Assembly: GCF_964213995.1 (NCBI RefSeq)
Contig: NW_027590275.1
Coordinates: 248,001-312,000 of the forward strand
Origin: Mustelus asterias
Lineage: Eukaryota
DNA length: 64,000 nucleotides
Reading direction: 5' to 3'
Under the pieces are notes generated by a model. It ran no database searches, was not told where the DNA came from, and saw only the letters and a program-made list of their open reading frames with translations. Position 1 is the stretch's first letter; each line of letters starts with the position of its first letter. This document shows, piece after piece, positions 32,842-33,167 of this stretch. A program made the translations under genes and the position numbers.

Positions 32842-33167
32842 TTTTTTTGTACTTTTCCAATTCAATCACATTCAATTCACAGTCTCAACAAGTTGAGACA
32901 TTTCCGATCCAGGCTGACAAGACAGGGCAAGCGACCAAATTACCCTGTCCTGGGCCCGATCTACATGAGCCAAGCTGAATGGAGTTGGGGGAGGTTCCTC
33001 CTCCAAGGCTTGAGCTCATTTGCATCTTAGCCAAAAGGCCGAGATGCCGCTTTTAAAAATTGCTTCATATGAAACATATGAAGCTTCAATGTAACCTAAT
33101 GACCTCAACCAAGCGCAGCATCCAATCCATACTACACTTGATCTTAGCCAAAAGGCCGAGAGGCGAT
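32842..33167 (-). mobile_element. U2-snRNA-headed short retroelement, copy B (full U2 5' end)
   Basis: ATCGCCTCTCGGCCTTTTGGCTAAGATCAAGTGTAGTAT = U2 nt 1-39 with 1 mismatch; body colinear with copy A; A tail abuts the H2A ATG. Confidence 0.9.

Follow-up and report, generated by a model that had tools for sequence, protein, structure and literature searches.

A U2 snRNA-headed SINE family in a shark and a Keno-type LINE that uses the same site in U2 genes

The window analysed here, a stretch of 64 kb (64,000 nucleotides), holds a histone gene cluster with H1, H4, H3, H2A and H2B genes and their stem-loops. The cluster is interspersed with degenerate tRNA-like sequences and many CR1-type fragments (21034-29000, 48260-48335; 27648-32841, 49595-50059). 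The histone H1 of the window has its nearest named relatives in sharks, with identities up to 95%, which identifies the host as a shark. A long near-perfect inverted repeat at 35924-36108, which gave a weak score against a plant microRNA model, is probably a foldback repeat. Two further sequences, copy A and copy B, are copies of a short element that begins with the 5′ part of U2 snRNA (Table 1).

Table 1. Copies A and B of the U2-headed element, their parts and the adjoining histone frame, in window coordinates.
Feature	Position	Strand	Basis or remark
Copy B, full-length U2-headed SINE, 326 nt, without TSD	32842..33167	-	sequence comparison
Copy B, U2 head (U2 nt 1-39)	33129..33167	-	38/39 identical to the genome's U2 gene
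Copy B, anti-U2 arm, imperfect inverted copy of U2 nt 11-36	33093..33118	-	predicted pairing with head
Copy B, hairpin, then unpaired T5 stretch	33051..33084	-	T5 in 57/62 full-length copies
Copy B, second U2 piece, copy of stem-loop I	33022..33047	-	23/24 identical to U2 nt 4-27
Copy B, long predicted hairpin	32965..33019	-	tip subfamily-specific
Copy B, second long predicted hairpin	32906..32961	-	tip subfamily-specific
Copy B, short perfect hairpin ahead of tail	32882..32899	-	
Copy B, tail end and A run, adjoining ATG of H2A frame	32842..32858	-	
Copy A, other subfamily, U2 nt 8-35, longer linker, independent insertion	20436..20771	-	
Copy A, 10-bp TSD	3′ copy 20426-20435; 5′ copy 20770-20779	.	
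H2A reading frame, frameshifted here, begins directly after copy B A run	32506..32841	-	

Copy B starts at U2 +1, leaves the U2 sequence after nt 39 with a single mismatch at nt 6 relative to the genome's own U2 gene, and ends in a run of 7-8 A. These features agree with the initial annotation of the locus, as does the absence of a U2 3′ half, which was found in neither flank of copy A or copy B; a search with Rfam matched only the U2 5′ part at both places. Copy A, the limits of which are approximate (about 20771 to 20436), is colinear with copy B as had been proposed (85% column identity, flanks included). The two copies had also been said to leave U2 at an equivalent GTA/TGGA junction, and this part did not hold: in copy A the junction falls at a different U2 position and is that of another subfamily, with 3 instances among the first 100 junction matches. 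Nor is the body devoid of U2 sequence as first described, since it contains a copy of U2 stem-loop I (element nt 121-144) and an inverted U2 arm (nt 50-75).

No TSD was found at the flanks of copy B, and these flanks are common to 11 of the 30 loci retrieved for copy B at ≥96% identity. Copy B is therefore one insertion that was multiplied together with the histone cluster, and it is atypical of the family. Within the amplified SINE-H2A unit (loci L001-L008, L016, L017 and L021) 4 of the 11 copies have an uninterrupted H2A gene of 129 aa, and the H2A stem-loop is kept, so that a SINE-led H2A transcript is conceivable. In the window (32378-32841, minus strand) the A run of copy B adjoins the H2A start codon without an H2A promoter upstream.

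The predicted RNA fold of the element is far better than that of shuffled sequences (z = −8.0). In the common form its inverted U2 arm departs from perfect complementarity to U2 nt 11-36 in 11 places, and 7 of these still pair as G-U; the predicted pairing of this anti-U2 arm with the head would hide the branch-point recognition sequence. It is followed by a hairpin, the T5 stretch, the second U2 stem-loop I, two long hairpins, a short hairpin and the tail. Stem variants that keep pairing account for 14 of the 20 variants common to at least three copies and for 18 of the 71 singletons (p = 0.0004), a result that leans in favour because the helices were derived from the same copies. A formal covariation count with 28 chosen copies gave 97.7% paired cells, a value reached by 5 of 500 shuffles; a change on both sides was seen in 3 of 83 pairs, which 49 of 500 shuffles also reached, and double-sided covariation is thus weak. 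Selection on the structure as modelled is likely. When the body was compared with Rfam, only U2 nt 7-26 and one chance match were returned at E values up to 10, and an H/ACA-type, snoRNA, scaRNA or ribozyme identity was rejected because none of these families matched. Over the whole element no tRNA, 5S or 7SL match was found in Rfam. In 53 of 62 copies the body contains an octamer-like word (33018-33025, minus strand), and in 43 of 62 a stretch of 9 nt (about 32914-32922, minus strand) matches the PSE-like region in the upstream of the main U2 class; both may be due to chance.

The initial annotation had proposed a mobile, SINEU-like family from the two copies in the window. The genome contains thousands of copies that are dispersed over many contigs and not confined to intact U2 loci. 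The exact head-body junction has 3,754 genome-wide matches (0 for the reversed-pattern control), one exact tail motif has 4,598 (control 0, again with the pattern reversed) and a second has 4,391 (5 for its control), and when the genome was searched with the body, 2,332 candidates, of which 40 were scored, were found on many contigs. Over the first 72 Mb of contig C1 the two tail lists comprise 100 and 98 matches with 72 in common; this overlap corresponds to ~6,100-6,300 copies, a lower bound because the two motifs are not independent, and we put the family at about 6,000 copies or more. Fifteen arbitrary 10-kb stretches contained no copy, consistent with the density expected for ~6,000, and on the same grounds the first-look total for the U2 model, 135,653 candidates, was rejected as a copy number.

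A sample of 94 distinct copies, biased to full length and with histone-linked duplicates merged, was used to look for signs of mobility. A TSD of at least 8 bp bounds 51 of the 94, compared with 10.6% for mismatched flanks; the start lies at U2 +1 in 24 and within nt 1-15 in 76. Among 30 loci that were chosen by their tails, 22 extend into the U2 head and 8 are 5′-truncated. The 62 full-length copies have a median pairwise identity of 90% (range 71-100%), and two of them, L027 and L029, are 100% identical despite different contigs; the family seems young enough for present activity. Subfamilies have recurrent linkers, hairpin tips and, in some cases, head substitutions of their own; the tips are mosaic, and one head substitution recurs together with one linker. 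The recurrence of subfamily-specific linkers and head changes indicates that the head is copied along with the body. Junctions, A tails, TSDs, truncations and subfamilies bear out the proposed mobile family.

As described in the available parts of Kojima (2015; PMC4494074), SINEU had been found nowhere outside crocodilians and its transcription was left open. Set beside SINEU-1, -2 and -3 by description, the shark family has every SINEU feature that was tested. Its head derives from one of the U1/U2 snRNAs (38 of 39 nt as in the genome's U2), and it is non-coding, shorter than 500 nt, A-tailed and flanked by TSDs. It forms a true family with subfamily-specific linkers and head changes, and its body is without counterpart in the LINEs examined. 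It has an internal oligo-T (T5 in 57 of 62 copies) and no pol III head. It also has repeated U2 pieces, tandem copies that sandwich a TSD and a Tx1 partner that itself carries an snRNA head, and like SINEU-1 it has no tail in common with the LINE. Mobilisation by Tx1 would follow from the common target (nt 38, tandem arrays), by the same kind of reasoning as in the original paper. Unlike SINEU as described in those parts, the shark element has an anti-U2 arm predicted to pair with its head, its copies are found inside U2 genes behind upstream regions, and its partner has retained the genuine Keno site in U2 genes in place of a Mariner target; the host also differs.

A LINE partner was sought with a zf-RVT search of the genome, in which 150 of 1,388 candidates were scored and 30 loci fetched. 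The fetched loci belong mostly to one LINE family, with matches in every unit of an 8-kb U2-gene array. Its ORF1 encodes RNA-binding and zinc-knuckle domains, and its ORF2 (1135 aa) contains APE-type endonuclease, RT and zf-RVT domains (Pfam). The nearest proteins are 52-57% identical and a TX1-labelled 149 kDa protein is 44% identical. One dispersed LINE (L112, G000:C2:32250000-32259999) has its own U2 head and intact ORF1 (353 aa) and ORF2 (1135 aa). ORF2 is interrupted in four array-resident copies, and one further array-resident copy has a 1144-codon frame and lacks the 5′ end.

In U2 genes the A tail of this LINE is followed by U2 from nt 38, and U2 extends to nt 58 ahead of the element, which amounts to a 20-bp duplication. 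The 3′ junction thus lies 37 nt into U2, directly before the published Keno target, and this target is the same 20-mer as the LINE duplication (PMC6136364, in part); the insertion site of Keno, of the Tx1 clade, in U2 is also given in the available part of PMC4640811. Exact LINE tails, for which a longer motif was used, number 602 and are spread over contigs, and most of the 3′ junctions examined are outside U2 genes, so that strict U2 specificity does not apply. Like the SINE, the LINE opens with U2 sequence, at most nt 1-35, and then has a fold-back arm (z = −2.3 and −4.9 for two copies and −0.75 for a shorter variant). The initial annotation had anticipated a Keno/Tx1 partner with the same 3′ end as the SINE. 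Such a partner exists and uses the U2 nt 38 site, and no common 3′ end was found: SINE and LINE have no tail in common and no body alignment above shuffles, the nearest case being the first 77 bases of the body, whose match to the LINE 5′ UTR is borderline (reached by 5 of 200 shuffles). Because there is no common tail, the partnership rests on common targets, from which it is likely that the LINE mobilises the SINE.

SINE tails that continue into U2 nt 38 are few, with only 6 exact junctions among thousands of copies (control 0), and a junction with U2 at nt 33 or earlier was not found. A gene at the end of the main U2 array begins with an upstream region that is 96% like its neighbours, followed by U2 nt 1-39 and an internally deleted SINE, and continues with a truncated LINE, a second SINE and U2 nt 38-191; SINE, LINE and SINE thus stand in series between upstream region and 3′ half. 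A variant class of U2 genes is ~90% identical to the main class (175 bits vs 182-190) and has a 448-bp unit with a different upstream. In the array of this class (G000:C21:28045000-28082000; L130-L132, L181, L183) nt 38 is the point of interruption in 6 of about 10 units, with 5 LINE ends and 1 SINE end there next to 4 intact genes. An array at G000:C24:44815000-44936000 (L111) repeats an almost identical unit of 8,035 bp about 16 times, each with one intact U2 gene and one promoter-less U2 gene interrupted by the LINE, the ORF2 of which has a further repeat inserted.

Outside U2 genes the SINE is clustered, with 32 of 126 copies ≤1.1 kb from another where 0.4% would be expected; the neighbouring pairs are head-to-tail in 14 cases, head-to-head in 4 and tail-to-tail in none. 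The LINE shows the same association, since 81 of its tails sit 8-38 nt before a U2 head at varying nick-to-head distance, and 19 of 20 such cases examined run on into a SINE body. Several LINE TSDs take in the first bases of the SINE head, which indicates that the LINE came later and used the old nick. By crude identity, young LINEs are found before old SINEs and not the reverse (rank correlation 0.66). A strong target consensus at dispersed sites was considered and rejected, as the nicks show little sequence preference beyond an A before and mostly a T after. The evidence that ties LINE to SINE is of the type that ties Tx1-Mar to SINEU, and is tighter. We are highly confident that this is a real, mobile and recently active SINEU family with an identified Keno-type partner.

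Copies behind U2 upstream regions had been anticipated and were found. Of 12 matches to the variant-U2 upstream, 6 run seamlessly into the SINE, 2 into the LINE and 4 into intact U2, and 5 of the 6 SINE cases are on contigs other than that of the array. A LINE copy on C7 that has U2 upstream DNA lacks its 3′ end. Several TSD-bounded copies have U2 sequence beyond the head. L149, a dispersed copy that stops at its A run, has 93 nt of U2 upstream DNA and a U2 fragment within a 16-bp TSD; L148 is a block in which a LINE tail, the U2 3′ half, spacer, a SINE and the end of a LINE follow one another; L122 is flanked on either side by U2 sequence within a 13-bp TSD. L027 belongs to the youngest group and is preceded by U2 nt 24-48. 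These four have the form expected of retrocopies of RNAs made from U2-resident elements. Template jumps, or later insertion into a retrocopied U2 piece, can account for some such copies, though hardly for L149. Against promoter capture, the copies behind U2 upstream DNA are at most 92-98% identical to any other sampled copy, and no source locus for the youngest copies was found among those sampled. An internal deletion marks the copy that follows the main U2 promoter, and in the variant array the +1 base of the resident copy is altered. Neither the main nor the variant U2 class showed an octamer in its upstream region; the PSE-like match between the two upstreams is 12/18, at what we take to be the usual position of the PSE, and both motifs used were those we presume to be standard. 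The T5 stretch would argue against pol III transcription, by analogy with the argument that Kojima made for SINEU. Transcription of the SINE from a U2 promoter is supported indirectly by the transduced copies, and capture of that promoter from U2 genes is probable on this evidence.

On balance we favour a life cycle in which a non-coding U2-headed retroposon is likely moved by the Keno-type LINE and likely transcribed from copies at U2 nt 38. Upon insertion in a U2 gene the element head would replace the first 38 bases of the gene, and because of this replacement the external snRNA promoter would start the element at +1. The LINE reverse transcriptase would prime on the internal A run, and for this reason most new copies would be without the U2 3′ half. 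The anti-U2 arm would fold onto the head and likely stop the RNA from acting as U2. Most new copies would land outside U2 genes, where they would be promoter-less and become landing places for later SINE and LINE insertions.

The strongest alternative, although in our judgement an unlikely one, is the model that Kojima put forward for SINEU, in which unrelated flanking promoters or an upstream tandem copy drive transcription, template jumps of the reverse transcriptase add U2 sequence, and copies in U2 genes are dead ends. Jumps onto U2 snRNA were proposed for SINEU-2 (available parts of PMC4494074), and template jumps were proposed for R2 (likewise PMC3414825). The bare piece of U2 nt 11-29 at the 5′ end of one truncated LINE (L114) fits this model, as does the clustering of 32 of 126 copies, and the octamer-like word and the 9-nt U2-upstream match in the body could drive a downstream neighbour. 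However, heads are inherited with the body, as each subfamily has its own linkers and one linker is repeatedly associated with a head substitution. The 93 nt of upstream DNA in L149 cannot have come from jumps onto mature U2, and the varying spacers between tandem copies fit badly with exact +1 starts.

The initial annotation took the body for the truncated 3′ end of a U2-targeting element such as Keno or Utopia and the head for leftover target. The head does end at nt 35-39, which is the Keno/Utopia site, but a true target remnant would extend to nt 58, and no part of the body or tail, 3′ end included, aligns with the resident Keno-type LINE above shuffles apart from the borderline 77-base match to its 5′ UTR; we regard this origin as improbable. 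A SIDE-like, internally deleted Keno was rejected since body and tail are not homologous to the LINE ends. An extinct or unsampled LINE donor of the body is possible, with 30 of the 150 scored zf-RVT loci fetched. A functional variant snRNA-like gene with dispersed retrocopies, its structure kept for a cellular role, would suit the strong conserved fold and the U-rich single strand between hairpins but is very improbable, because the body matches no Rfam family besides U2 stem-loop I, the many subfamilies (71-100% pairwise) and mosaic tips fit a mobile family and not one gene, and no uninterrupted gene array of this form was seen, the U2-array copies being followed by the U2 3′ half as insertions are.

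The retroposon life cycle that we favour can be extended by a more speculative and rather doubtful step, in which the U2 head serves as address, promoter trap and landing pad and the Tx1 system chooses its targets by RNA guidance. The U2 head of the SINE or LINE RNA would tether the retrotransposition complex to U2-head DNA by base pairing, and the endonuclease would nick the nearest usable site, which would be nt 38 in a real U2 gene or the old nick upstream of a copy. Landing at nt 38 would give a promoter, and every new copy would seed a new target. The weak nick preference, the 25% clustering against 0.4% and the 4 head-to-head and 0 tail-to-tail pairs fit such guidance, as do the variable nick-to-head distance, the LINE TSDs with SINE head bases and the order of young LINEs before old SINEs. 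Recognition of the head by a protein is a possible alternative to RNA guidance, as are locus-level hot spots.

Among other known systems, the partner LINE resembles Keno as partly described (PMC4640811, PMC6136364) in its APE-type ORF2 and in ending before the same 20-nt target, 37 nt from the U2 5′ end. It is unlike Keno in being mostly outside U2 genes, i.e. of relaxed specificity, and in having its own U2 head and fold-back arm, and the SINE differs from Keno in that it has neither an ORF nor Keno sequence. In mechanism the SINE is nearest to the R2 SIDEs (Eickbush and Eickbush, 2012; PMC3414825), which in the available parts of that paper are non-autonomous, occupy their partner's site in a multicopy RNA gene and are co-transcribed with it. 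R2 SIDEs are forms of R2 shortened by internal deletion, have a ribozyme and are confined to rDNA, whereas the shark SINE is no LINE deletion product, matches no ribozyme family and is spread genome-wide. CmiSINE and SacSINE1 are likewise short non-autonomous retroposons of cartilaginous fish, but each has a tRNA head with pol III boxes and an L2 tail (PMC5499810), and the available part of that chondrichthyan SINE paper nowhere mentions snRNA or SINEU. The parts available of a 2017 review and a 2018 paper name no snRNA-headed SINE in a shark, and none was found in the open literature searched, a scope outside which subscription papers, Repbase Reports and Dfam lie.

The shark family extends the SINEU design to a second lineage of vertebrates. 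Because its partner has reading frames that are intact and candidate source loci lie in U2 genes, the questions of promoter and targeting become testable, and a borrowed U2 promoter, if true, would explain how promoter-less elements of the SINEU type are transcribed. The interruption of 6 of about 10 variant-U2 units is a direct cost to an essential gene family. Annotation of U2 and mapping of small RNAs in sharks are contaminated by thousands of look-alike heads. In sequencing runs, at least half of the sampled sequence words are contained in six runs of two organisms, and runs of seven further organisms contain 0.20-0.33 of them, which suggests that the family is spread across species.

The first 117 nt of the element end in a T/A stretch (window 33051-33061, minus strand) like the tail ends of SINE and LINE, directly ahead of the second U2 piece. 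Comparison of the two halves gave no similarity above shuffles, and none of the loci examined had a first half standing free; that two U2-headed units in tandem, now fossil, gave rise to the element is a guess. At G000:C1:82749860-82750138 three head-linker matches lie at 117-bp spacing, in a copy that has its first part repeated three times.
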